Part shown: positions 31,820 through 64,000 of the stretch, one piece after another
How positions within the stretch are numbered: position 1 is the stretch's first letter
Layout of the letters: the number at the start of each line of letters is the position of its first letter
NCBI GenBank assembly: GCA_046563655.1
Contig: CM102287.1
Span: 8,804,001 to 8,868,000 of the forward strand
Origin: Yuukianura sp. NJ FZ-2021
Lineage: Eukaryota
DNA length: 64,000 nucleotides
Direction: 5' to 3'
The notes under the pieces: generated by a model
Databases searched by the model: none
Seen by the model: the letters and a program-made list of their open reading frames with translations, nothing else
What the model was told of the DNA's origin: nothing
Position numbers and translations under genes: made by a program

Positions 31820-33090
31820 ATGTCAATTAATGGTTCTGACAACGAAAGTCAACGCAAAACTGAAGCCGAACATGTTATACAACGCTCAATTTCTGCTGGT
31901 AATAGCCGCGTTTTAGATTTTCCGTTCTTTGAGTTCAAGTTTTCCATATTTTTTAAACAAAGAAACTTATTTGAACTTTATTGACAGAAACTGTGGCAGC
32001 AGCGTCTTCTGGATTTTTTACAGGCAAAGTAGAGTTTGACCTCGGGGAAATCTCATTTCCAGGACATGGAGAAGTTCGTATTAAAGGAGAATATCTTCAA
32101 ATTAATTCAAGTCATAAGCGGATTCAATTAGATGATTCAGAACTTCACATTATGAAGACAAACTTGAGAGCTTGGGCGGAACGATTTTTTGAAATGGAGA
32201 CTCAACCAAAATACTTTGACGAAGTGATTATAACTGGATGCTACTCTGCCGCGTTCTTCAATCCATTTCATGCCATTGATTCACCAGAAATGGGGTTTTG
32301 CACAAAATTTATGTTTTGGATTTTTGTTTTAGATGAAATTGTTGAAATGGCTTTGGTTAAGCAAAACCCATTTGAAGATTTCAAACTCGGCTTGAAACAT
32401 TTCATGCAAGTTCTCAGAGGGGAAACATCCAAGATTCTTTTTGAAAATTTGAAATTTCCAAATTTTAAGGCCCTTCTCGACTCTCTTGTGGACATAGATG
32501 AAGGTCTTGAAAAACATATTGTCGGCTACAGAAAAAAGGTTGAGCCATATTGTTTCCAACTTGAGAGGTTTTTTGAAGCTTATGAGTGGTACGCAGCCGC
32601 AGGGAAAATTGACTTTCGTTATTCTGAAGCAACTTTTCTAAATTGGCACAGAATTATTATTTTTGTGGAACAGTGGATTAGTTCCGTGTTGCTTGTTCTG
32701 GATGTACAATTTCCAGTTGACCTTTACTTGACCCCGGCTGTTCGTCGCTATGTTGAAATAGTCAATTCTCAAGTTGCTATTGTCAATGACATCATTGGGG
32801 TCAAAAATGAATTAAGAAGTGGTGCTCCAGATAACTTTTTGTTGTTTAAAATTTACGAAAAAGGGATTCCAGTGGAAGAATCGGTAGAGCAGCTTCTCCA
32901 AATGTATGATAGCGATCTGCAAGAACTATTTTTGTTACGTCAAGGTCTTCTGAAACAGTTCCCGAATAATCCCAGTATCCTGGCATTTCTGGACGTTTGT
33001 GAAGCAGCGCTGGACGGTAATAATCGATTTCATTGCCACTGCCCGCGATACAGTGCTGTCGGCATGGTTAAACTTACTAATTTAAATTAG
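31820..33090 (+). CDS. Class I terpene synthase/cyclase, microbial type (exons 31820-31898, 31988-33090)
   Basis: Asp-rich motif variant FVLDEIVE; candidate pyrophosphate-sensor Arg (NWHR); NSE/DTE motif NDIIGVKNE; C-terminal RY (FHCHCPRY); one in-phase GT-AG intron. Confidence 0.88.
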
Positions 33091-48651: not shown

Positions 48652-51600
48652 ATGATGGGTTTCGTATGCGCAGTAGCAGACTGTTCGAATTGTCAATCGG
48701 GTATTACAGAAGGATACAGGCCGTACTTCCGGTTTCCAATTAACAGAAGAGAACTTTGTGAGCAATGGATCATCGAATGCCGAAGAACGGACAAGTTCAA
48801 CCCAGCGGACTTTCGCGTATGTCCAGATCATTTTTCCGCTGATGACTTCGAACGCGACGTGGAATCCGAGCTAATGCATAGGATGAGATTAAAGCCGGAT
48901 GCCGTTCCCCGTTTACATCCTAATAGACTAAAGATCGAGGAAGACGAAGACGAGAGTAAGCCATAAGTTAACGTTCACAACTTATTTTAAACATTGCAAT
49001 CTTCGATTACTAATTTGATTTTTTATTCAAGTACTACCGGATTCTGGAAGTACAACATCGGAGAAAGTCATTCAGCCTTCATTTAATCTAGAGAATGGTG
49101 GCTGCGTAGTATGCGGAGACTTAAACTGTCTCTCCATCCAATCATACGAATCAGACCTAGAATTAATGAAGGCATGGCGAGCAGGCTGGGCAAAATCACT
49201 TTGCAAGATGTTGGACGTAGGAAGTGGCTATGAAGAAACTTTCTTAGAAGGAAAATTTTGTTCTCGGTGTCAAGAGATGGTATGTAAAGGCGAGGCTGCA
49301 ATGAACTTCCTTCTACATCTCCAGGATCAGCTGAAAGAAGTTGAAAAGAAGCTGCAGCAACTTTTCCATAACAAGGATTCCATAAAGATCGAAAGTCATG
49401 ATGAGTCTGATGATGACATGGAGTCAATTATCAACAGTGTCAGATTCGATAGATTGAATTATAATTGGACTCCACCAACAGTTGACTATAATTGGACCCC
49501 TCCAGCAGCTGATCCAGTAACCTCGGCCATTGATCCGCTGGGTGGTTTTGGAGAAGATGGATTGATTCCGGTAAAGAAACGTCCAACAATAAGCAGGCTT
49601 AAGGAATTGAAGCAACGACAAGAACACCGCCCCTCTACGTCACCACTAACTGCAAGCCGTCGTGGTCCTGGTCGCCCTCGTAAGAAAGTCGTTGAATCTC
49701 AACCGATGGAAACAGATACAGATCCATTTGATGGTGTACATAACACTGACCTAGTAGCTCTTCCACTTACCACGGAGCGACAAGGCAATTTATCAATCAT
49801 TTAATTTACTTTAGCAAAATGGCAGTATTCCGATTCAGTAAAACGTTTAACATTTCTTTTGTTCATAGTTTCCTTAGACGGAATGGAACTGAAGCAAGAC
49901 GACGATGATTTTGGTGATCTGGGTCCACACCAATTTGAAAATGTATTCGCCAGTTTTATGCAGTTAGGTGATACGGAGACAAGAGATGGAGAAACCGAAG
50001 GTATGACATGAAAGTTGTAACAAAATTATTGTAGATTACTTATAATTGTGATATGCATCATGTAATAAACGTTTTCTGGTTGAATAGCTACAGGAGGTGA
50101 AGATTTGATTTTGAATTTACATTCAACTGAGTTAGCGTCAACTTCTGAGGACTTCAGTACGAATGCTGCGGACCAAGCTAAACAAAAACAGTTACAAAAT
50201 GCGTTTCCGGATTGGCGTTTACCTCAACGTGCTTCCCGATACATTTGCAACCACCCAGACTGCTTTTCTCGAGACTTGTGCTTTTCTCGTCCCACGCTGG
50301 TTCGAACTCATTGTCAGACTGAACATCCAGGTCAAGGTCTTGATCTCACACCTTACCACTGCTCAAATTGCGAAGATCGATTTGTTACCGCCGACAATCT
50401 CCGAGTGCACAAACTACAAACTCATCCTGAACTGGATCCAAACAAGTACGGATGTCCCTTCTGTGCTCAAAAGTTTCACAGCAGTGGAAGCCTTGGAACG
50501 CATTTGCGGTATTGTAAAAGCAACAACACTTCTACTAAAGCTAAAGCTGAGCCGAAGCCTGCAAAGGTGAAAATCCCACCGTGTCCAATTTGTGGCAAAA
50601 CTTTTGAATGGCCAGAAGAAGCCGAACACCATGCGACTCTCCATGGAAAAGACGAGCCACGAAAGCAAAAAACATGCGTAATGTGTTCTTCGGTGGACAA
50701 ACCCAAAGTGTTTCGCAGCAAAGCTGAACTGAGACGCCATGTGAACTTCTCTCACAATATTCCGGAATCGATTCCTCCTCGTGTACTGAGTAAGGGAAAA
50801 AGAGCCAAAAAAGCTTCTTTACGTCTGCGACTGAAGCGAGCTCGGATTGTAATGCAAATACGGAGATCTGAACGTGAGCATCTCAAGAAGGACGTAATTT
50901 TCTGTAACTTTCCAAAATGTATGGCCGGTAACGCAATTTTTTCCTCCCGGTTACGACTACGAACACATTTGAGAACAGAGCATAAATTCACTGTATTGGA
51001 AGCTTTATGCACCTACCATTGCGATAAATGTGAGTTGCGGTTTGAACATTCCAGCCAATTGGATGAACATAAACGACGTGCCAAATTTGATCCACGGCAT
51101 GATGTTGAACCAGAAGATCCGGAAGATCTGTTTTGGTCTTCAGCAGAACCAGAAGAATCAGCTGATCGACCAAAGCGTACCGGAAAAACAGCTGACCAGG
51201 CTACACCTAAACCTACTGAAAATTACACATCTTTCCTCTGTTCAGAATGCGGTTACTTCTGCAAGTTCAACTGGCAATTACAGTATCATATCCAGATCAA
51301 TCACAGCGCAACAGGAGTCATCAAGTGCAAATTGTGCGGAAAATGTTTCCGGGGTTCACAAAAAGAAAAAGAAGATGCTGTACGATCACACGAACTTCTT
51401 CACTCTGATGACAATGTTTTTGGATGCGTCTTTTGCGACAAGAATTTGAGATCAACTATCGAGCTGGCCCAACACGTTCGGGATGTTCATGAAGATTTTC
51501 CATTCAAATGTAACGAGGAGGGCTGTGGAAAAGGATTTGAACTGGAAGTTCAATATCAAAAGCACATGAAGAATCACACCGCTAATGCTCGAGTTTACAA

Positions 51601-52387
51601 GTGCAAAGAGTGCGACTTCATCGCAAGACGTAGCAAAGGCTTGCACTATCACTCGATCGCCAAGCATTCCACCGAACATAAGTTTCCATGCACTTTTGAA
51701 GGGTGCCAAAGGACTTTCAAATTTAAACTAAGAAGAACTCTTCACTTGCGACGAGTTCATGGAGTTGGAGTCACCCAACTTTATAAGTGCAGAATATGTG
51801 CAATGGAGTTTGTCGTGGCATCGTCCTTAACGAAACATGAGCAATGTCACAGTAAAGAACGGCCATTCATCTGTGAAATTTGCTCGGCATCATTCAAATG
51901 TAAAGCAACTCTTAGGCAGCATTACAGAGTCCATAACCCGGATAAGAAAACTGGAAACAACTGGAAGTTGCAGCAACCGAGAAAACCAAGACTCAAATCA
52001 TCCGAAGCGGAACGACTGGCTCACCGCATGTTGGAGAAAGCAAAGGCAGCGAAGAAAACTTCTACTCCAGCAGCAGCAGCAACAGCAACCGGACAGATAA
52101 CAGAATCTACTGAAGATACTTCTGCCCAAGCGCAGCAAAATGACGTCCCCATGAGTGGAACTGAATCTGCATCTTCACTGAATCTTCAACAACAAGCTCC
52201 GTGTTCATCAGCAATTGCTCAAGGACATCTTCCAGAAGTGCTGCCGCCTCGCACGTCGTCGCTTGTCGAACCATCGCCAGTACTACAGCATTGGCATTCG
52301 CCCTATCCTCCTACAAACTTGGAACTCTCTACAGTGGATCCAAGAATTTGGCAACATTTTGCCAATTACAGAAATACTCCGTTCTAA
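48652..52387 (+). CDS. THAP + ZAD-like + multi-C2H2 zinc-finger protein, paralog A
   Basis: THAP: CAVADC...RFP...W...VCPDHF...LKPDAVP; exon 2 CVVC...FCSRC; long C2H2 array with HSKERPFICEIC linker. Confidence 0.85.
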
Positions 52388-52929
52388 GTTTAAAATTTGA
52401 ATTGTACTTTCTATATAGGTGTGAAGATTGTTATGAGGATAATAGTATCGATCGAATTTATTTAGGATCTAATCAATTTTAGTGTCTCGTTTTTGAACGT
52501 TTTGGAAACGTTTCATTTTCGAATCGTAATTTCCATTCCAATAATGTTCGTGTTGTTCCGATTTTAGTAAATGTAGAACCGTTAGATTTCTACAACTCGT
52601 AAGTCCTTATGATGTGAACGCTGATTGTAAGGTTGTATTTTAAATTTTATTTTTGAAAAATTTCAGGTCAAAGGTCATTTAGACATTTCTTTTGTAATTT
52701 TTATAAAAACAAAAATTTCTGCAGTAAGTTGCAAAAAATACGGTGCCCAGCTGTGACATAAAAGTGCGAAAGAGTATCGTTCAGATATGTCTGATATGTT
52801 TTAGACCAACCAATTTGTTTACGCTGTCAGTTTTTCTTTTTAGTCAGGTTAGGTTTTATTTGATAAGAAACGATTTCTAAACGAAGTTAATTAAAGTTTA
52901 ACTTAATTTAGACCAAGAATTGTGTGATA

Positions 52930-55328
52930 ATGGTTTTATACTCGTGTGCAGTAGCAGATTGCCCAAACCGGCAATCGATAAAAGTCAACTGCCAATCAAT
53001 TCAACAAGAAATAATCTATTACCGTTTTCCAGTAAAGAACAAGGCAATTTGTAAACAATGGATTACACAATGTCACCGAACGGGCAAGGGCAACCCAGAA
53101 TATCTCCGGGTATGCTCAGATCATTTCTCAGCTGATGACTTCGAACGTGACCTCAAATCGGAGTTACTTGGGCTTCAACGAAGGAAAAAGTTAAAACCGG
53201 ATGCTGTTCCCCGGTTGCATCCAAACAGGCCTGGATGTGCTGGTATCGAAGAGTCAATTACCGAGAGACAGCAAAGGCAGTTGATAAAGAAGAGGAAACT
53301 AATTGTCGATGAATTATTGAAAGGTAAGATGACACTAAAAGTAAGACTTAATAGCAAGTTTAATTAACGTTACCCTGTCGTCATGAGTTTCCTCTGTTTC
53401 CAGCTAGAGAATTGGAAGATTTAGCGAAACAAGATGAGGAGGAGGACAACATCAATGCAGATTCTGATATACGAAATCCTTTTAACGAAGGTATGTATAA
53501 GGTTTCACAACGTTAGGAACCCAATCACTTTGACGAAGGTGATCCTTACTTTGCTTTTGTTTTAGGGCTTCCGGCATTTGTTCCTGTCAACCTTGGATGC
53601 ATAATATGTGGAGACTTGAACTACCTCTCAATCAGATCATCTGAGTCGGATAAGGGATTAATGAAGGCATGGCGAGGGGGCTGGGCGAAATCTCTATGCA
53701 AGATGTTGCGGATCGGAAGTAATTATGAAGACGTGTTTTTGGAAGGGAAGTTCTGTTCACGGTGTCTAGAGATCGTCTGTACAGGAGAATCTACCATCAA
53801 ATTCTTATTACATCTTCAGAATCAGTTGACAGAAGTTGAAAATACGGTCCAGCAACTGTTTCGTACAAATCATTCTATCAAAACTGAAACTGGCGAGGAA
53901 TCTGAAGAAGACATGGAGTCAATTATGAACAGAGTGAAGTTTGAGTTGACCGGTATTTGGACTAGATCAGTCGTCCCTCCATTAGACGGTATGGAAGAAA
54001 ATGGATTATTTGTCGAAAAACTTCCAACAACTAAGAAGCTAAAGCAATTGAAGCACCGTCAAATACAAAATACAAGCAGCCCTAGTCGCCTACGCATGGA
54101 CATCCTTCGACACCAACAGAAGGCAACTCCGCGTTCACTTTTGGATATTTCGCGACCCGTCATTTGCAACATTCCGAACTGCCGAGCCAACAACACAACT
54201 TTTCCTACCACCGACAAACTCCAAGCACATTTGATACAAACACATGGATTCTCAGAAGTGGAATCCTTACCTTTCTACCAATGCGACAAATGCGAACTGA
54301 GATTCGAACACCGCAGCGAACTAGATGCTCATAAACGGCTTGCCATGTTCGACCCACGTCATGAACCAGATGATCCGGAAGACTTGTTTTGGTCTTCAAT
54401 TACTCAAGGACTTCCCGTACAAAAACAGTCTAAGAAAATCAAAATACCTGAAGATGCTAAGGACAACAACAAGCCTATGCTCCAATCCAGAAGTAACCTT
54501 TGTTCAAAATGTGGCGTATTCTTCGAGCTGTACTCGACGCTGAAGAATCACCTTCGCATGGTTCATGGCTCGACGGAACTCAAAAAATGTGAAGTGTGCG
54601 GAAAATCTTTTCGGGGGTCAACATTCCAACAAAGTGCTGCCATTCGGGTACACGAACGTCTTCATTCTGATGTCAATCCTTTCGGATGTGTATTCTGCGA
54701 CAAGGAGTTAAGATCAACAGTTGAGCTCAAGCAACATGTCAAGGACGTCCATGAAGAATTTCCTTGGAAATGCAATGTGGACAACTGTGAAAAGGCTTTT
54801 GAACTGGAACATAAATTAAAAGAACACAAGAAGAAACATTCAGTTCAGACTCAACAGCACAAATGCAAAGAATGCGAGTACACTGCAACAAGCAATGCCA
54901 AAGTACGGATTCATTGGATTGTCAAACACAGGTTAGAAATTTTGCAATTGAAAATACAATCAATATAATGTACATATTAAGAATGTAATACAATTTTGTC
55001 TCATTTAAGCACCGAGAAACAGTTTCGATGTACTGTCGATGGTTGCCAAAAGGCTTTCAAGTTTAATAGGAAGCTATCTCTTCACATGCAACTTGTCCAT
55101 CGAATTGGAATTACTAAATTTCATCAGTGTAGAATCTGTGGCAAGGAGTTTGTCAAGTCATATTCGCTAACGAAGCATGAGCACACCCACAGCAGTGAAC
55201 GTCCATTCGTCTGTCAAGTCTGCCCGGCAGCGTTCAAATGGAAAAAGAATCTCCGGCAGCACTACCAAGTCCACGATGCTGAAAAGAAGCACAGGAAATA
55301 TCGGGTTAATTACGGAAGCCAAGAGTAA
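52930..55328 (+). CDS. THAP + ZAD-like + multi-C2H2 zinc-finger protein, paralog B
   Basis: THAP: CAVADC...RFP...W...VCSDHF...LKPDAVP; CIIC...FCSRC; C2H2 array collinear with the second half of paralog A (FDPRH..DPEDLFWSS shared). Confidence 0.85.
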
Positions 55329-55674: not shown

Positions 55675-56424
55675 TTATGCTGAAGGGAGAACACATTCGA
55701 AGGCAATGTTGTTCAATGAGGTATCGTCCTCTGCAAGTGTCAAAGGTCACAGGTTAAGTACATAATTGAGTTAATTACTATGATTATCGATTGATTAACT
55801 TACGTAAGTTTCCTTGATCAGGTTGGACTTGAGTTCTGAGGCCGGAGACAACTTGACCTTCAGGACAGTGCTGCTCTTCGCCCCATTGTCCATAAGGACT
55901 ACAAGAAAAATTCAAAAGTAAGTATTTTGTTTAACCATTAAAATATGTTGTTTTTTTGGTAATTGTTAATTGGTTTCGCTTATGTTTTAGTACCCTCCAT
56001 CTCCTTCGATGTAAGTGGTACTGCCTGTGCAGAAGACACGGACGTTGTTTGTAGCAGTTTCGTCTTGATAAGCATCAGGAATCTCTACTTGCAATTGGAA
56101 CCCCGTGATGAATCCTTCGTTGGGACAACGATGCCTGTTTCTCCATTCGCCCCATTGTCCGACACTGCTCTCAATGTATGGAGTCGTTGAGTTGGTTGGA
56201 TCTCCGCAGTACAGTCGAATGCCGTTGGCTGAAGTGTCGTCGCCTGGTCCTCTGATTCCTTCAACGAAGAGCTGGAATGCTTGGGCGTAGGTTCCTTCCG
56301 GACATCGGGAAAAATCTGTTGCCCAGTTTCCCCAGTTGGTTACGGGGGGTGACGTGATGACATCGCTCTGAGCGAGACCAATGACAGCGACGACGACGAA
56401 CGTTGACAGAACGAACTTGGCCAT
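55675..56424 (-). CDS. Vitelline membrane outer layer protein 1-like (VOMI beta-prism), 3 exons
   Basis: Signal peptide; WGNW, CPEGTYAQAFQL, DDTSANGIRLYC, WGEW, DETATNNVRVFC, DDTSLNNIAFEC threefold repeats. Confidence 0.9.
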
Positions 56425-57108
56425 TGTGAGTCTGGATTAACTTCAACTACTAACATTGGATCGTCTCCATGGAACACAGTTAAGTACCCAAATTAAGCAA
56501 TTGTCCTGATCGTACTATCTTAGCTCCGCCCTTGATACTTGCGAATTGCGATAAAGTTTAGAACACTCGGTGGAAAGCATGGTCACCTTGAAATGAGGAT
56601 TTCCTCATTTCGGTACTTAGCCCTCATACTCTCCAACAATTTTAAAGTTAATCGCTAATTCAAAGTTGAATTTACTGTCCATCAAACCACTTCAGTTTCG
56701 ACTTAACTTTTATTTCAAAGTTTCAAACGTGTCAGAAACTTCTGACACAAACGTTTCTAACTAAAAGTGATTAGTTGTAAACTTTTTCGCAAGCTTGCAC
56801 AAACAATGGAACATGTTAATCATTGTTAATTTAATCTGATCGAACACATTTTAGACTTTTGCAGCCTATTGTGCTCCTAATCTTGATTTCAAAATCTAAT
56901 TTTGAACTTGATTTTTTCAAATTTTGAATGCCAGTAGTTGTAGAATTCGGTTTTTGAATTTATGGAATTTTTACGAATTTAAAACAAATTGAAGGTTTGG
57001 GCTTCCAAACTTGTTTTTTATTTCATAAACATGAAATTATAAATTACAGAATTAAAATTTGAGTTCGTTTTGTGAGGTTTCTGAAGGAATGATGATTGAT
57101 TTTGTGGT

Positions 57109-57846
57109 TTAGGCGGCTGGTGAGCATTCGAAGGCGAAGTTGTTCAATGAGGTATCGTCCTCTACAAAAATTTTAAAACAAAACGAGAGGTCAGAGGTCA
57201 TGAAACAAATTTTCACTAAAATGCAACAAGTAAATGTAGGATTTGAACTTACGAAGATCTCCTTGATCTGCCTGGATTTGAGTACGGATGCCAGTGACAG
57301 CTTGACCTTGCGGACATTTTTGCTCAACTCCCCATTGTCCAAATGGACTAAGAAATTAAGTTTGTTTGAATAAATTGTAATTAATATAATATTTTACATT
57401 TTTAGGTAAACTTACCCTCCATCTCCTTCAATTGGAGTGGTCGTGGTGCTACAGAAGACTTTGATGTTGTTGGTGGCAGTTTCATCTTGGAAAGCATCAG
57501 GAATTTCTACTTGAGCTTGGAATCCGGTGATGTGTCCTCCATTGGGACAGCTATGTACGTTCCTCCATTCTCCCCATGCTCCGAAGTTGCTCGTGATGCT
57601 TGGAGTGACCGGTGAAATTGGATCTCCGCAGAAGAGTCGGATTCCGTTGGCTGAAGTGTCGTCGACTGGTCCTTTTGGCAACTCCACCAACAATTGGAAT
57701 CCCTGGGCAAAGGATCCAGTTGGACATCGCTGGAAATCATCAGCCCACTCTCCCCAATTGGTCACTTCTGGAGAAGTGATGACATCGGCTTGAGCCAGTC
57801 CGAGGACTACAACAGCAACGAACACAGACAGAGCGATTTTGGCCAT
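57109..57846 (-). CDS. VMO1-like tandem paralog, 3 exons
   Basis: Same motifs and intron positions as 55675-56424. Confidence 0.9.
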
Positions 57847-58664
57847 TTTACTTCAGTCTTGAAACGAAAGTTTCCAACTAGTGCGAAACTTTGCATGTGA
57901 GCTCAATTAAGTACTAGAAAGTGACAATGTCAAATCAGCTGTTATCACCTCCATCTGCTTCACCTGGAAATTGGCCAATCAGCGATAACATTGAGGTCAA
58001 CTCAACACTACAAAATCTAACATTGAAAACGGTTGTTTTAAACTATGCCTCACAGGAAACGGAATCTCAAGGTCATGCACTCCTTCGATTTGTGGTGTTT
58101 ATCTGATGGAATGTGTGAGAAAAAACTTCATTTTGCTTTGTTTTCTTAGTTTTGGATTTTCATTTTTTTTTAAATTCTAGATTCTCACACGTTTCATGGA
58201 TTGCGTCAAGCTGTCAACTGTTATGCTCAATTACTGCGTGTTTTTGGTGCTTTGACACATCTGACCACTCAATATGGAAACTTCCAGTTGTTCCAGTTGT
58301 TGAATGTTGAATGCTTAATCTTCTTCGGACTTCGGACTTGGAAATAACGCAAATACTCCACGGTTTAATAGTCTGAGAACAATCTGATTGGCCAATCGGG
58401 CGGCCAATCAGACTCAATTGATGTCCGTGTGACGCAATGAATCGGGTTGGATCGGATCATTTATGGTATTTTTGGACAAGATAACACTACAAGAATTGAA
58501 GAAACAATAACAAAGTTATCCAGAATTCGTCATTGTCCAGCTACCACTTCACATTTCACGTGGAGGTATGTTAGTACTTCACAATTTTATTTTTCGGCAT
58601 AACTTTGCTTTTATGGGAAAGTTAGTAATGTCAATGTCACTTTACAGGTCATAGAGGTCAGATG

Positions 58665-59170
58665 CTACGGGATTTGTGGACATCCACTGACGCTGCACTG
58701 AACATTTCCGGATGAAGGTCTCTCCACATGCTGTTTATGTAAGTGGACAGGCAGGTCATTACTCATTCCAGCAGCGACATAGCGCTTCCCGCAGTCATAG
58801 ACGTTGTAGTCCTGGTTGGAGGTCACGCGGAGGTCAAAGATCCGCACTCGATGCATTGTCCATAAGTAGCCATGGGTGCTTCCAAGCTACAATGAAATGG
58901 TGGCGTAAGTTTTTGAACTTTTTAAAAATTCCGAAGTAAGCGTACTCTAAAAGTAGAAGTTCGGAAGTTTTCTAGAATTTCCGATGGAGTGTCTGCTATC
59001 ACTGTATTGATTTTCTTCGTTCCATATTGTTGTTTACGATGTCGCTCTGGCTTCAAACTGTTCCGAAGCCAAACATTCCACTCAGTGCGAGTCATACCAA
59101 CAGCAAGCTCTGGGTCAATCAAATGCTTTCGCTGGAAAGCTTCCCAACCTGCCTCAGCGTCATCACTCAT
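58665..59170 (-). CDS. RNase A-like protein, stand-alone domain, 148 aa (exons 59170-58946, 58886-58665)
   Basis: MSDDAEAGWEAFQRKHLID...YGTKKINTVIAD...FR/LGSTHGYLWT...FDLRVT...KRYVAAGMSNDLPVHLHK; 59-nt phase-0 GT-AG intron; paralog of the next gene. Family call is from motif alignment by eye. Confidence 0.72.
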
Positions 59171-59523
59171 TCCCTAATTTTGAATTTTGAAATCTCTGAC
59201 TGGAAAAAAAAAGTTTTAAAAAACGTCACCGCATGATGACTATAAAACTCAAATTAATTCGGATTGGACAATCAAACGATACTACTCAGAAGCATTTTGT
59301 CGCCTTGAGAAATTGTAATTTCTTTTCGTTTTTTGAAAATGAAACAAAGAATGAATTTATTATTAGTTTTAGTTTTTAGACCCATTTTGGAAATTGAATT
59401 TTACAAAAAATTTACAGTTGAGTTTAGCAAAATAACGTAAAAAAAAACTATTTCTATGAAAAAATCTATCGACCATGAAAATTTTGAAAATGGCCGCGGT
59501 AATTTTGAGATGAGTGTTTTGTT

Positions 59524-60791
59524 TTAAGAAACTTGGTTACATCCTTTTACAGTTGACTGGACATTTCCAGTGACCGGTCTGGACTGGAAGTGTCTATGAA
59601 GATGTACAGGGCGGTTTTCGATCATTCCGGCAGCGATGTGTCTATCTCCACAGTAGAACACATTGTAACCATTGTTTGCAGTCAAACGAAGGTCAAAAGT
59701 ACGAACTGCATAAGATGTCCAGAAGTAGTTCCCGCCACTACCGAGCTAAACAAGAGCAACACGAATTTTTAACTAGGCTAATTGAAAAACTAATACAAAT
59801 TGGATCCATTTCAGTTTAAACCCGGAAGTTGGAGTTTTGGAAATTTGCCAACAGTCGCTCTGGAGTATCTGCGACGACGGTATTGATGTTCTTGACACCA
59901 TAACGCTGCCGCTCATTGGTCTCAGAGGATAGACGATTGTAGAGCCAAGTATTCCATTCGGCTCGACTCATGCCAAGAGCAAGAGTGGGATCGACGACAT
60001 GTCGACGTTGAAAATCATTCCAACGCTCCTCCCCTTCTGGACTACTGCAAAATGGCAAAACGTAAGTGTTTTTTAATGTTTGTTGCAAACAGTTTAAAAG
60101 TAAGTTGCATTGTTTATTTGTTTAACATAGTCTAACCTAACAACTTCAGTTGAAGCGGCAGGAACGGGAGTACTAGTTGTGGACGGAGAAGGCACTTCAG
60201 CAACGCTGTCATCAGCTTCATCTTCTGTCGTTTCACTAGAACTTTCCTATTTAGAAAGGATTTTTGACCTGTTTGGCTTTTGACGCAACATCACAAAACC
60301 GTCAGTATTTTGGTAAAATAAGCGACGTACAGATCGAGTTTTCTTCGCGCAAGGCTGTGCTGCTTGGCCTTGTTGTTTGCGTTTCCGTCCGCGTTTTGGT
60401 ACGCATGAGCTACTGCCATTTACAGACGAACGTCTCAGTTGAGCTTGAGCAACGCTGGCTCCTTTTGGAGTCGAAGCGATGGATGACCTGCGTCGTCCTT
60501 GGAAGACACTCAGTCTCTTCTTTTGAGCAAGTGAAGATCTGCGCCAACGGCGCTGTCCCTGGAATACGCTGGTGTTCCGAGTCTGACTCAGATTCAGCGA
60601 AGATCGACGCCATTTTTTCTGTCCCTTGTAGACACTCGGGCGCCGTTTCTGAAATTGAAAATGAAAGAATTCTTGTTAGCTGGCAAGGATAACAAAGTGG
60701 CTTTGTGTACAAACGGCTTTACCTTCAGATTCTTTGCCACTAGGAATGTCTTATTGCATTGTTTGCCGCCATTGCGTTTGCGTCCGGCCAT
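59524..60791 (-). CDS. RNase A-like protein with basic/acidic disordered N-terminus, 313 aa (exons 60791-60723, 60648-60331, 60246-60137, 60044-59822, 59745-59524)
   Basis: All four introns are GT-AG and in phase; domain WNDFQRRHVVD...YGVKNINTVVAD...FR/LGSGGNYFWTSY...FDLRLT...DRHIAAGMIENRPVHLHRH. Confidence 0.72.
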
Positions 60792-61968
60792 CGCTAATTT
60801 CCATCAATTTGGTGACCAACCGAATCCGAATGTCGGATTGAGTCACCACAGTCGAAAAAGGACTTAACACTTTCGAATTTCACGGCGGCAAACAAAAACG
60901 ACGCGTGATGTTCAAGAAATTGACTAATGCCCCCTAAACGAATTTTTAGCATATCGTTTCATATCCCATTTCGAAAGTTCGTTTCCAACCGAAGCTGCTA
61001 AATTTTACGTCGTCATAGCAAAAGATAATTCACACAGTGCAGTGCGAGAGTGAATTTGAAGTTAAATTAAAATTGATCTCAACCTTCTTGTTAGTAAAGA
61101 GGTAACATCATGCATCAGAGAATGAGTATACTTGGTTTTACACCGCGACATCACCATATACAACTTTGCATGCTGTACAACATTACATGCAAGAATTTTC
61201 TGTACAATGGTTCAACAATGAATGATTAAGGATGGTTTTAATTAACAATGATTTACTTACAATCAAGTTATTGGCTGGAAAAGTCGTAGTAGGGGTTAGG
61301 GTTTGGGGCGAAGTGAGACAGCGTTACAAAGCCGGGATAAATTGGCGGGCTTTGAGGTATTTAATTTCTTGTCTGAACCGAAGCATACTCGTAACTGCAT
61401 ACCCGCTCCTGGCCGTATTTGGGCAACACAATTGTATGAGTTACTAATTAACAGTAATCGTTTCACTGTTATTAAGTAACCTAGTTTATTTAATTAATTG
61501 TAATTACTGTTGTTAATGAACGTGCGTATGAATTAATTGAAAGCTCAGTTAAGACTCAATTTGTTAAACTAGATTTTTAGTGTTTGCCCAACCCTGTGGG
61601 GTGTGTGACGTAAGAGTGTCCGTTAGTTTTACCGAAATTATTTACAAAAAGAAGAGGGAACGGGAAGTGGAAAGTAAAGTGGATCGCCGATTTCGGATTT
61701 TATTTTAATTAGTTTGAGTTTGAGTAAACTAATTACTACTAAATTACCCACGCAATAAAGTCACATCTGATATACACTCTCTGAACTTGCCAGGTTTGGT
61801 CCGGGGTGGCAATTCTCAGGCCGATCCTTGGGAACTGTGCTAAGACAGTGACCTGTCACCAGTCCTTTGGAATTGGATTTGGACATAAAGAAGACTGTTA
61901 CTGTTACTCTACTGGACACTGACTGATACTCTACAGAGAAGAGAAGGCTGATCCTTTGGAATTGAAAA

Positions 61969-64000
61969 ATGGACAGAATTGTTGACAAGCTCAATCAGTG
62001 CACTCTTCGAGATAAGGACGATGGATTCCTTACTATTCAGCAACATGTTTTAAATAAGGACTTTACCAAGGTCTTTGCCATACTCAAGGTAAGTTCAACT
62101 AATCTTGTGTCCCTAGTTAGTTATGGCGTTAAAATCATCGTTCATTTTATAATTTAGACCTTGCATGGAGTTGATGACGATTTGGCCTGGCATAAAAAAG
62201 TGGGCAATGTTATAAGTGAAAGCTTTGCTGAAACTGATGTCGCATGGGATCAAAATGACAAAGAGCCGGTTTTGGGTATCATGGAACATTTCATGGAATG
62301 GCTAAATAAGGCTCCAGCTGAATTTTCCTCCTTGACCGTGTTCGTGCTCATTTTTCATGCTAACAGACGACTGCTTCGAACAGCGGTAATCATATTAGCT
62401 TTTGACCAAGTTACTTTTCAAGTCTCACAGTCTAGTTTGCTTTTAGGGGACGTGGGATTACCAACTACAATCTAGACTACTTGACCTTATATGTCATGTC
62501 AAGTTCCCCAGTGGCGAAGATTACGCACATAGGATTAGGTCCTTTAGAAGCACTATGTATGCAGTTACTTGGAACCAGATGAGAGAGAATTTCAAGACCA
62601 TAGATCAGTACACGAAGACGGAAATGATGATCATGTCATGCCGTTGGCTGATGTTTGACTCGATGGAGAACATTACGAAAGTTGGCAAGAAGTTTTCCGG
62701 CACTGTTGCAGGGTGTATTACTGCCAAACCTGATGCTAATATGAACGTTTTGATACTGACACTTCTGACTGACATATGCACCGATTACGGAAACATGTTA
62801 GAGAAGGTTAGTTTTTTTGTTTATTTGAATTTGAAAAGTTATGTATCAGTTAAATATACTAATCCTGCAATTGTTAACTCGTCTCGTCATGTTTCGGCAG
62901 GAAATTGGCCAGGGATCAATTAAACTTGGAAATATCACAGGGAAATGCATACTCAGTCAAGCTCTAGTGGAATTTGCCTTTGGTTGTTTGATGATTGCTC
63001 AACGCTCAAGCGATTCAACCATTGCGTCTGTGATGCTAGAGGGATTACTTAATGTTTGCTATGACCACTTCAGCACCGTATTCCTTCGAGTATTGGAAGC
63101 TCAAATGCGCCTTGTAATCCAAGTATTTGAGGAGATTTACGACAAGAAGCCAGTATGTGTTGCTGCACAGAAACTACAATCACTTCGTACGACGCTTTTG
63201 CCTAAACTTCATAGCCCTAAAGGTAATTGAAACACGTTCATAAACTGCTTATCCTTTGGGTAAAATGTGATTCTTATATTTTTCAATAGGTTCGGGAGAA
63301 TTAGCATCCGATCTTCTGACATGTTTCTTTCAAGCCATCGTATCCTCACCTCCGTGGCGTCCAGACAAACGTTGCGAGGATATGACAGTGGAGCATGTGG
63401 CCAAGTTAGCCACTGAACTTGTTACTCTTCTACCGGAACAGAATCGCATCAAGTTGAGTAGAACGGTAAACATGAAGGTTAATATTGGTCCAGACGTTGT
63501 GGTAAATTACATCATCTTTATCATTCGTATCGTTGCGGACAAATTGAGCCGAGAGACATGCTACATTTCAAAGATTATGGTTCCAATTCGGAAGTGTATG
63601 GACTCTTTGTCAGAGTTTATACCTCAATTGGGATCAGGGGATTCCTCTACTGACATAAATTACGATATCGGTAAGTGACAAAGCCCAAAACAATGCGGTA
63701 TGTGGTATGTTTTTGAAACTGTTTGGCCTGAACTGTTGTTTTTTTTTTGTTATTATTTACAGGTCACTCTTTCTATAATCTCTCAACTGCTCTCCAAAAA
63801 GCTGGAAGGTACGAGGAGTCCCTGGACATTTGTAAAAAGTGTGTCGAGAGTTTCACTAGTTTACCGAAGGAGAAGCTTACTGTAAGTTCAGCAACACACG
63901 TTTATGCAATGCTTGCCCATATTGTAGTTTGCATATGGTAATGATTTCGTTATAAACTTGGTTTTTGTTGTTTAGATGCACCCACACTTTTACTGCAACA
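61969..64000 (+). CDS. Unidentified large alpha-helical (HEAT/TPR-like) protein, 5' part, runs off the window
   Basis: Chain of exons with GT-AG boundaries (e.g. donor 62089, acceptor 62157); amphipathic-helix composition; TPR-like LSTALQKAGRYEESLDICKK. Confidence 0.6.

Follow-up and report, generated by a model that had tools for sequence, protein, structure and literature searches.

Tandem genes sharing a putative RNase A-related domain, one of them with a basic RRSS-repeat extension, in Yuukianura sp.

The window analysed here, a stretch of 64,000 nucleotides (nt) from Yuukianura sp. NJ FZ-2021 (assembly GCA_046563655.1, contig CM102287.1, positions 8,804,001 to 8,868,000, numbered below from its first letter), carries on its minus strand two adjacent paralogous genes, here called A and B, whose common domain has a likeness to RNase A. 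Gene A consists of five exons that form one open frame of 313 amino acids (aa). The reading that we propose, with about as much confidence as doubt, is that A encodes an intracellular protein made up of a basic tail, an acidic linker and an RNase A-related domain, and that this protein is nuclear and tuned by kinases. A further-reaching version, in which A and B represent a true RNase A lineage in a protostome (intracellular, disulfide-free and intron-bearing) and A has become a kinase-gated nuclear or nucleolar RNase through its added tail, is put forward more tentatively. The sequence itself shows how the gene is built, which motifs it holds and that they exceed chance, that A and B are paralogs under purifying selection, and that the repeat motif is preserved in the protein; the fold, catalysis, localisation and phosphorylation of the A product are what we infer from it.

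The model of gene A was derived from stop-to-stop frames and from enumeration of splice sites, in which all GT/AG pairs in the scanned ranges around junctions 3/4 and 4/5 were combined, with exons 1-3 and the end at 59524 held fixed. Exactly two models remained open, one of 313 aa with the exon 4 acceptor at 60044, the other of 312 aa with an AG located 3 nt downstream (60041). The five exons are 69, 318, 110, 223 and 222 nt long and are separated by introns of 74, 84, 92 and 76 nt, all of them GT..AG; intron guanine-plus-cytosine (GC) content is 0.28-0.37, and the exons are higher at each codon position except for the third position of exon 3 (0.22). Exon 1 (60723..60791) encodes 23 residues of basic character and starts with an ATG at 60791-60789, which has G at -3 and G at +4 and an in-frame stop four codons upstream (open reading frame 60594..60803). 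Exon 2 (60331..60648, phase 0 at both ends) holds the basic repeat region, and exon 3 (60137..60246) an acidic Ser/Thr/Pro linker, its length fixing the frame of exon 4. Between the tail exons and the domain exons lies intron 3 (60045..60136, GC 0.28). Exon 4 (59822..60044) and exon 5 with the stop codon (59524..59745) encode the N-terminal and C-terminal halves of the domain common to A and B, and an AATAAA is present at 59356-59361, about 165 nt beyond the stop. An earlier note on this DNA had quoted peptides from 60137-60791; all of them were found there on the minus strand, and this interval corresponds to exons 1-3.

A tblastn search within the window identified one further copy of the domain, that of gene B, directly downstream of A and with its intron at the same position; neither a third copy of the domain nor a second copy of the tail was detected in the window. 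Exon 1 of B (58946..59170) begins with an ATG of its own at 59170, eight residues before the conserved Trp with which the domain starts, and is followed by an intron of 59 nt (GT..AG), exon 2 with the stop codon (58665..58886) and an AATAAA at 58586-58591, giving a product of 148 aa in all. The neighbouring tail-less paralog described in the earlier note is a gene with its own start. The two domains are identical at 78 of 146 residues (~53-54%), with a proportion of nonsynonymous differences (pN) of 0.30 against a saturated synonymous proportion (pS) of 0.78, and a pN so far below a saturated pS indicates that the duplication is old and that the domain is under purifying selection. Within the first 40 residues, hydrophobic runs are at most four long in A and three in B, which begins with acidic residues, and no signal peptide is apparent in either product, as judged by the length of such runs; since no run exceeds four, both products should be intracellular. 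The sequence AAATTAG stands just upstream of both ATGs (60792-60800 and 59171-59180, minus strand), and no promoter homology was detectable between the regions upstream of the two starts, where the best local alignment score (17) is below the shuffle mean (20). Head-to-head with A lies a multi-exon gene on the plus strand (61969-64000), whose ATG at ~61969 is ~1.2 kb from that of A; its five large exon frames belong to no Pfam family, and a bidirectional promoter region between the two starts may serve both genes.

In both copies, the domain contains three motifs in the same order, namely F-x3-H, K-x2-N-T 36 residues further on, and P-V-H another 71 residues away. They correspond in A to W-x2-F-Q-R-R-H (59999-60022, His181), K-x-I-N-T (59879-59893, Lys217) and P-V-H-L-H (59596-59610, His288), and in B to the intervals 59123-59146 (His16), 59003-59017 (Lys52) and 58737-58751 (P-V-H-L-H, His123). 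Within wide spacing limits, this order was reached in only 2 of 2,000,000 shuffles of domain A. All of the motif residues are invariant between A and B, whereas overall the two agree in 39 of the 73 columns of each half. According to Mushegian et al. 2020 (PMC7297114), a His-Lys-His catalytic trio is a hallmark of the RNase A superfamily, and F8 packs on P117 and F120 (L115 in angiogenin), by which H12 and H119 are brought together. Equivalents of these core residues (F8, H12, P117, H119 and F120/L115) occur in the A/B domain at the same relative positions, and the likeness extends beyond the catalytic residues to their neighbours (W, Q, L and D near the first His, E/N ahead of P-V-H-L-H).

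Profile searches built on the A and B peptides were run against 177,635 distinct PDB sequences. The exon 4 profile gave nine matches with an expect value (E) of at most 10, bullfrog RC-RNases holding ranks 1, 2 and 9 (E 1.0-1.8), each with the His motif within its aligned stretch; in the two RC-RNase alignments shown, the His-motif and K-x2-N-T segments are collinear. With an N-terminal sub-profile of 27 columns, RC-RNases took ranks 1, 2 and 7 of eight matches (E 0.21-0.89), the first two being aligned over residues 3-14 and 3-13 of their chains. With a C-terminal sub-profile of 31 columns, angiogenin chain 1k58 was first of three matches (E 0.26); the alignment covers the final 16 residues of that chain, among them its catalytic His. 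The RNase A family makes up well under 1% of the PDB; chains of the superfamily came first in three of the five profile searches, at marginal E of 0.21-1.0, and were absent from the other two and from four phmmer searches. That two independent segments each pick the RNase A superfamily at matching chain ends suggests a relationship, and we consider it moderately probable that the domain is related to RNase A.

Several results weigh against this kinship and speak for an alternative in which the domain has a fold confined to its lineage and without relation to RNase A, the motifs being alike by chance or convergence, in a protein A that would still be basic and probably nuclear. All RNase A matches are marginal (E 0.2-1.8). 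Single-sequence phmmer searches with the four domain exons against the PDB gave 0, 0, 2 and 1 matches, all unrelated; the exon 5 profile found one unrelated PDB sequence, and the sub-profile of the K motif (32 columns) retrieved an unrelated methyltransferase only and no RNase. The Pfam family RnaseA (PF00074) gave no match at E of at most 10 on any of the four single-exon halves, the whole spliced domain being unscored, and NCBIfam gave no significant match either. The PROSITE signature around the catalytic Lys of RNase A is C-K-x(2)-N-T-F; in A and B, Val or Thr stands in place of the Cys and Val in place of the Phe beside K-x-I-N-T. Members of the superfamily are secreted by means of an N-terminal signal peptide, which is missing here, as is the cysteine framework of the family. 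Domain A has two Cys, and since only two Cys columns are common to A and B, one pair at most could form, compared with the two to four conserved disulfide pairs given for the family in the accessible text of PMC7297114. For exon 4, the ESM Atlas gave a faint lead to fragments of sulfotransferases (score 0.90, 90 of 256 features), which we set aside since few features are shared, recognition is below the mark and no sulfotransferase motif was seen. Moreover, many windows were scanned, so a one-in-a-million motif coincidence can arise somewhere. We nevertheless regard an unrelated fold as the less likely reading, because two independent segment searches rank the RNase A superfamily first among all PDB sequences searched and at matching chain ends, the likeness reaches non-catalytic neighbours of the motifs, and the motif residues are invariant in paralogs that share only about half of their residues. 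Taken as a whole, kinship with RNase A is plausible but not proven, and of the earlier note's RNase A-like domain it is the order and invariance of the motifs and the PDB ranks of the segments that stand, with E values of 0.2-1, no Pfam match and a K-motif segment that recovers no RNase on the other side.

Structural and family searches with the separate pieces gave little else. AlphaFold2 models of the half-domains, based on a two-row alignment, were poor (predicted local distance difference test scores of 56 and 64). The low-confidence exon 5 model shows a beta-hairpin over the segment up to and including P-V-H-L-H; RNase A has a beta-hairpin at the corresponding C-terminal segment, a weak parallel. 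Glyoxalase-type folds appeared only as weak rows for the exon 5 model (Foldseek against the PDB and a wider fold search) and were disregarded, and the ESM Atlas gave no usable match for exon 5. The sole Pfam matches among five pieces were DNApol_Exo (E 0.027) and RIX1 (E 0.14), both sub-threshold and on exon 4, and the sole NCBIfam match was RipB_Ich (E 0.031), far below the cut-off.

Compared with frog RC-RNases of the onconase type and with angiogenin (PF00074), the A/B domain has the same order and approximate spacing of His, Lys-x-x-Asn-Thr and Pro-Val-His-Leu, and Phe stands four residues before the first His as in the superfamily; it is also of broadly similar size, ~147 aa being a little more than the 105-125 aa of the matched RNase chains. 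The spacing from His to Lys is 36 residues instead of the 21 in the frog chains shown. Unlike members of the superfamily, A and B lack a signal peptide, have an intron within the domain and two conserved Cys rather than six to eight, and no significant whole-sequence similarity to the superfamily was found. They also lie in a genome where a neighbouring gene best resembles a springtail protein, unlike the vertebrate superfamily. In the accessible portions of PMC5964141 and PMC3845642, the RNase A superfamily is described as vertebrate-specific. The exceptions outside vertebrates given in the accessible part of PMC7297114, which are claimed to have the RNase A fold, are one sea-urchin transcript and distant prokaryotic toxins (CdiA-CT(Ykris)/EndoU); there, CdiA-CT(Ykris) is described as lacking cysteines, and is cysteine-poor like the A/B domain. 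The same text states that the prokaryotic and EndoU forms use two N-proximal His, and that one N-terminal and one C-terminal His are a derived animal state. A and B have this animal arrangement, with one His only in the conserved N-terminal segment, which differs from the toxins, and no Pfam or NCBIfam match to prokaryotic RNase A-like or EndoU toxin families was obtained for the A/B pieces. We found no report of an RNase A member in arthropods, springtails, protostomes or hexapods in a literature search that did not cover most subscription journals.

The tail of gene A, encoded by exons 1 and 2, comprises 129 residues with 38 K+R and no D+E, and has an isoelectric point (pI) of 12.0. RRSS occurs four times (positions 37, 59, 76 and 95), and RR-x-[ST]-[LIVMF] five times, as four RRSS-[LIV] and one RRPSV, at 60631-60645, 60595-60609, 60529-60543, 60478-60492 and 60421-60435 in exon 2. 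A PKA-type basophilic kinase site is R-R-x-S/T followed by a hydrophobic residue, and all five positions have this form at the level of the motif. A classical monopartite nuclear localisation signal (NLS) has the core K-[KR]-x-[KR] inside a basic cluster, and at the same level it is found in KRGRKRK (residues 108-114, 60376-60396) and KKTR (residues 125-128, 60334-60345), both in exon 2, and in a further cluster, KKRR, at residues 23-26. When the 129 residues were shuffled 100,000 times with their composition preserved, no shuffle reached four RRSS and none five RRxS-hydrophobic sites, placing the R-R-x-S and NLS-like content noted earlier far above chance. The tail also contains three SV[FY]xG (positions 28, 50 and 70), and its repeat form is SV[FY]xGQ-basic-basic-W-RRSS-L, in about three degenerate units of 22 aa in the exon 2 region (60586-60725, 60520-60585 and 60472-60519). 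All three SV[FY]xG...RRSS repeats of the earlier note were found, although the third is the shorter one and has no Trp; RRSS occurs a fourth time without SV[FY]xG.

Units 1 and 2, which are 22 residues apart, agree at 11 of 21 residues but, at the DNA level, in no more than 37 of 63 bases. Of the 11 identical residues, six are specified by different codons, and each of the four RRSS has a codon set of its own. Tandem Repeats Finder and a repeat finder detected no tandem or direct DNA repeat beneath the peptide repeats. Since the RRSS codons differ and no DNA repeat is present, the repeat is kept at the protein level, and this speaks for a translated frame under constraint. By these comparisons, the tail's content of putative kinase sites and NLS is real and selected. 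A stop-free frame of at least 142 codons, as around exon 2, arose once each in five of 20 shuffled windows (none in the other 15). An open frame of 145 codons is also present opposite exon 2 (60255-60692, plus strand), a point against the proposed reading; it belongs to no Pfam family and is probably a by-product of the Arg, Ser and Lys codon usage of exon 2. The linker (exon 3 and the codon spanning the 3/4 junction) agrees with its earlier description as acidic and rich in Ser/Thr, with no K+R, nine D+E and 15 S+T in 37 residues and a pI of 4.05, and the charge along the A product thus changes from pI 12.0 in the tail through 4.05 to 9.38 in the 147-residue domain.

Repeated PKA-type sites beside an NLS are a feature of phospho-regulated nuclear import, and gene A resembles such substrates in having five R-R-x-S-[LIV] and KRGRKRK within 129 residues; its repeat SV[FY]xGQ++W-RRSS-L has no Pfam family and no database relative, unlike known PKA-type substrates. 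Instead of directing import, the tail could act mainly as a polyanion-binding, condensate-forming or protamine-like tether to RNA or chromatin, or as an autoinhibitory module, the acidic linker and the phosphorylated RRSS sites bending back onto the basic domain. The charge pattern along the chain is in keeping with such a role, and the repeated W-RRSS units exceed the needs of an NLS. A protein of the size of B is small enough to enter the nucleus by diffusion, so the tail would not be needed for nuclear entry alone. We think a mainly tethering or autoinhibitory tail rather unlikely, since a textbook monopartite NLS is present and angiogenin provides a precedent for control by way of nuclear localisation and phosphorylation, although these functions and localisation are not exclusive. 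Angiogenin is secreted and then taken up again, and its nuclear signal is a short internal basic patch; in gene A, by contrast, the signals lie in a separate N-terminal extension of 166 residues encoded by three extra exons, and the protein is predicted to be made in the cytosol. The parallel lies in a basic nuclear signal and phosphorylation that together decide where an RNase A-type enzyme acts, a state predicted from sequence for A and described for angiogenin (RNase 5), whose nuclear localisation is regulated by phosphorylation according to the accessible part of PMC5314776.

Sequence logic argues that the tail is joined to the domain. The domain exons of A have no in-frame ATG ahead of the N-terminal His motif, and neither do the frames of exons 2 and 3. 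If exon 3 is omitted, the frame stops immediately, or after 12 codons with the alternative acceptor at 60041, and its 110 nt are just what brings exon 4 into phase; the gap between exons 3 and 4 is 92 nt only. Because the domain of A lacks a start of its own and exon 3 is needed for the frame, the fusion is the parsimonious model, and the five-exon, 313-aa protein anticipated in the earlier note is very probably real. A point against it is an AATAAA at 60113-60118 (minus strand) inside intron 3, which could terminate a tail-only transcript, and upon retention of intron 3 the frame stops 13 codons on, giving a product of ~179 aa; a tail-only isoform is therefore possible. The same signal and stop, together with weak donors at introns 3 and 4 (GTTAGA and GTTTAA), could mean that exons 1-3 are a separate small basic-protein gene ending in intron 3, or an untranslated leader, and that the A domain is a start-less relic, which is improbable. 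The 92 nt between exons 3 and 4 are too few to hold both a 3' end and a promoter, and exon 3 provides the exact phase of exon 4. The A domain is uninterrupted through 146 codons, its pN against B is far below pS, and it has no ATG before its conserved N-terminal helix. The donor of intron 4, just as weak, has to function if the conserved domain is to be made.

According to the mechanism that we propose, the N-terminal 129 residues of A would be intrinsically disordered and extremely basic, with Kemptide-like RRSS-[LIV] sites, and the 147-residue domain would be globular, most likely related to the RNase A superfamily but poor in cysteine and not secreted. The domain would act as a metal-independent endoribonuclease that cuts RNA by His-Lys-His transphosphorylation, with His181 and His288 as acid and base and Lys217 stabilising the transition state. 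In RNase A a Thr contacts the base, and the Thr of K-x-x-N-T would do so here. KRGRKRK is predicted to bind importin-alpha, and the tail would most likely take copy A into the nucleus or nucleolus, where the polybasic repeats would hold it on nucleolar or other RNA by charge. Kinases of the PKA/PKG/Aurora type would phosphorylate the second Ser of each RRSS (S40, S62, S79 and S98) and S28, adding up to ten negative charges and so loosening the hold on RNA, hindering import, or doing both; the basic regions may be shielded by the acidic linker. The tail-less B would be active anywhere that a protein of 17 kDa can diffuse. The localisation of A, its regulation and a specialisation of the two copies after duplication are reasonable predictions.

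Relatives of the pair were sought in several collections. For exon 4, none of 81 candidates in a word-indexed protein collection reached E of at most 0.01. A HMMER search of exon 5 against 1.84 billion representatives gave three matches at E of at most 0.001, all repetitive unrelated proteins, and no bacterial relative was found among these representatives. Exon 2 of the tail gave 1848 candidates, none at E of at most 0.1, and no Pfam family. Scans of metagenome contigs with the exon 4 and exon 5 alignments yielded 185 and 201 pattern matches, none of which was confirmed. The host is probably a hexapod unrepresented in the protein collections, which may account for part of the apparent orphan status.

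Elsewhere in the window, we identified, next to the pair, two tandem single-exon genes for vitelline membrane outer layer protein I (VOMI) at 55987-56436 and 57412-57852 (minus strand), with signal-peptide-like starts; among the named relatives of the second, one from the springtail Folsomia candida ranks best (49% identity). Genes of the animal haem peroxidase, carboxylesterase, C2H2 and THAP types are also present, including C2H2 zinc-finger frames of 767, 483 and 115 codons at 50084-55328 (plus strand), together with a THAP-domain frame at 52912-53367. An open frame of 371 codons at 31975-33090 (plus strand) matches the Pfam family Terpene_syn_C_2, a microbial-type terpene synthase (E 8.6e-12), amid DNA that is otherwise hexapod-like, and is possibly horizontally acquired or a non-canonical animal enzyme.

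The origin of the RNase A family is an open question, for which a sea-urchin transcript and distant bacterial toxins are the sole leads in the accessible portions of PMC7297114, PMC5964141 and PMC3845642. If the likeness of the motifs is only convergent, A and B would amount to two orphan genes, one with a striking phospho-repeat tail, and would be of limited interest. If the kinship holds, they would be a new and unusual form of a classic family, in a phylum where it was not expected, and what has been called the only vertebrate-specific enzyme family would predate the deuterostomes or have moved between animals. The arthropod pair would then test the age of the scaffold and its folding and function in the cytosol without disulfides or secretion, and would bear on how cells tolerate an internal RNase A-type enzyme. 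Tandem paralogs that share a domain, of which one has a basic extension with an NLS and several RRSS and the other has none, are a natural experiment on compartment or regulatory specialisation.

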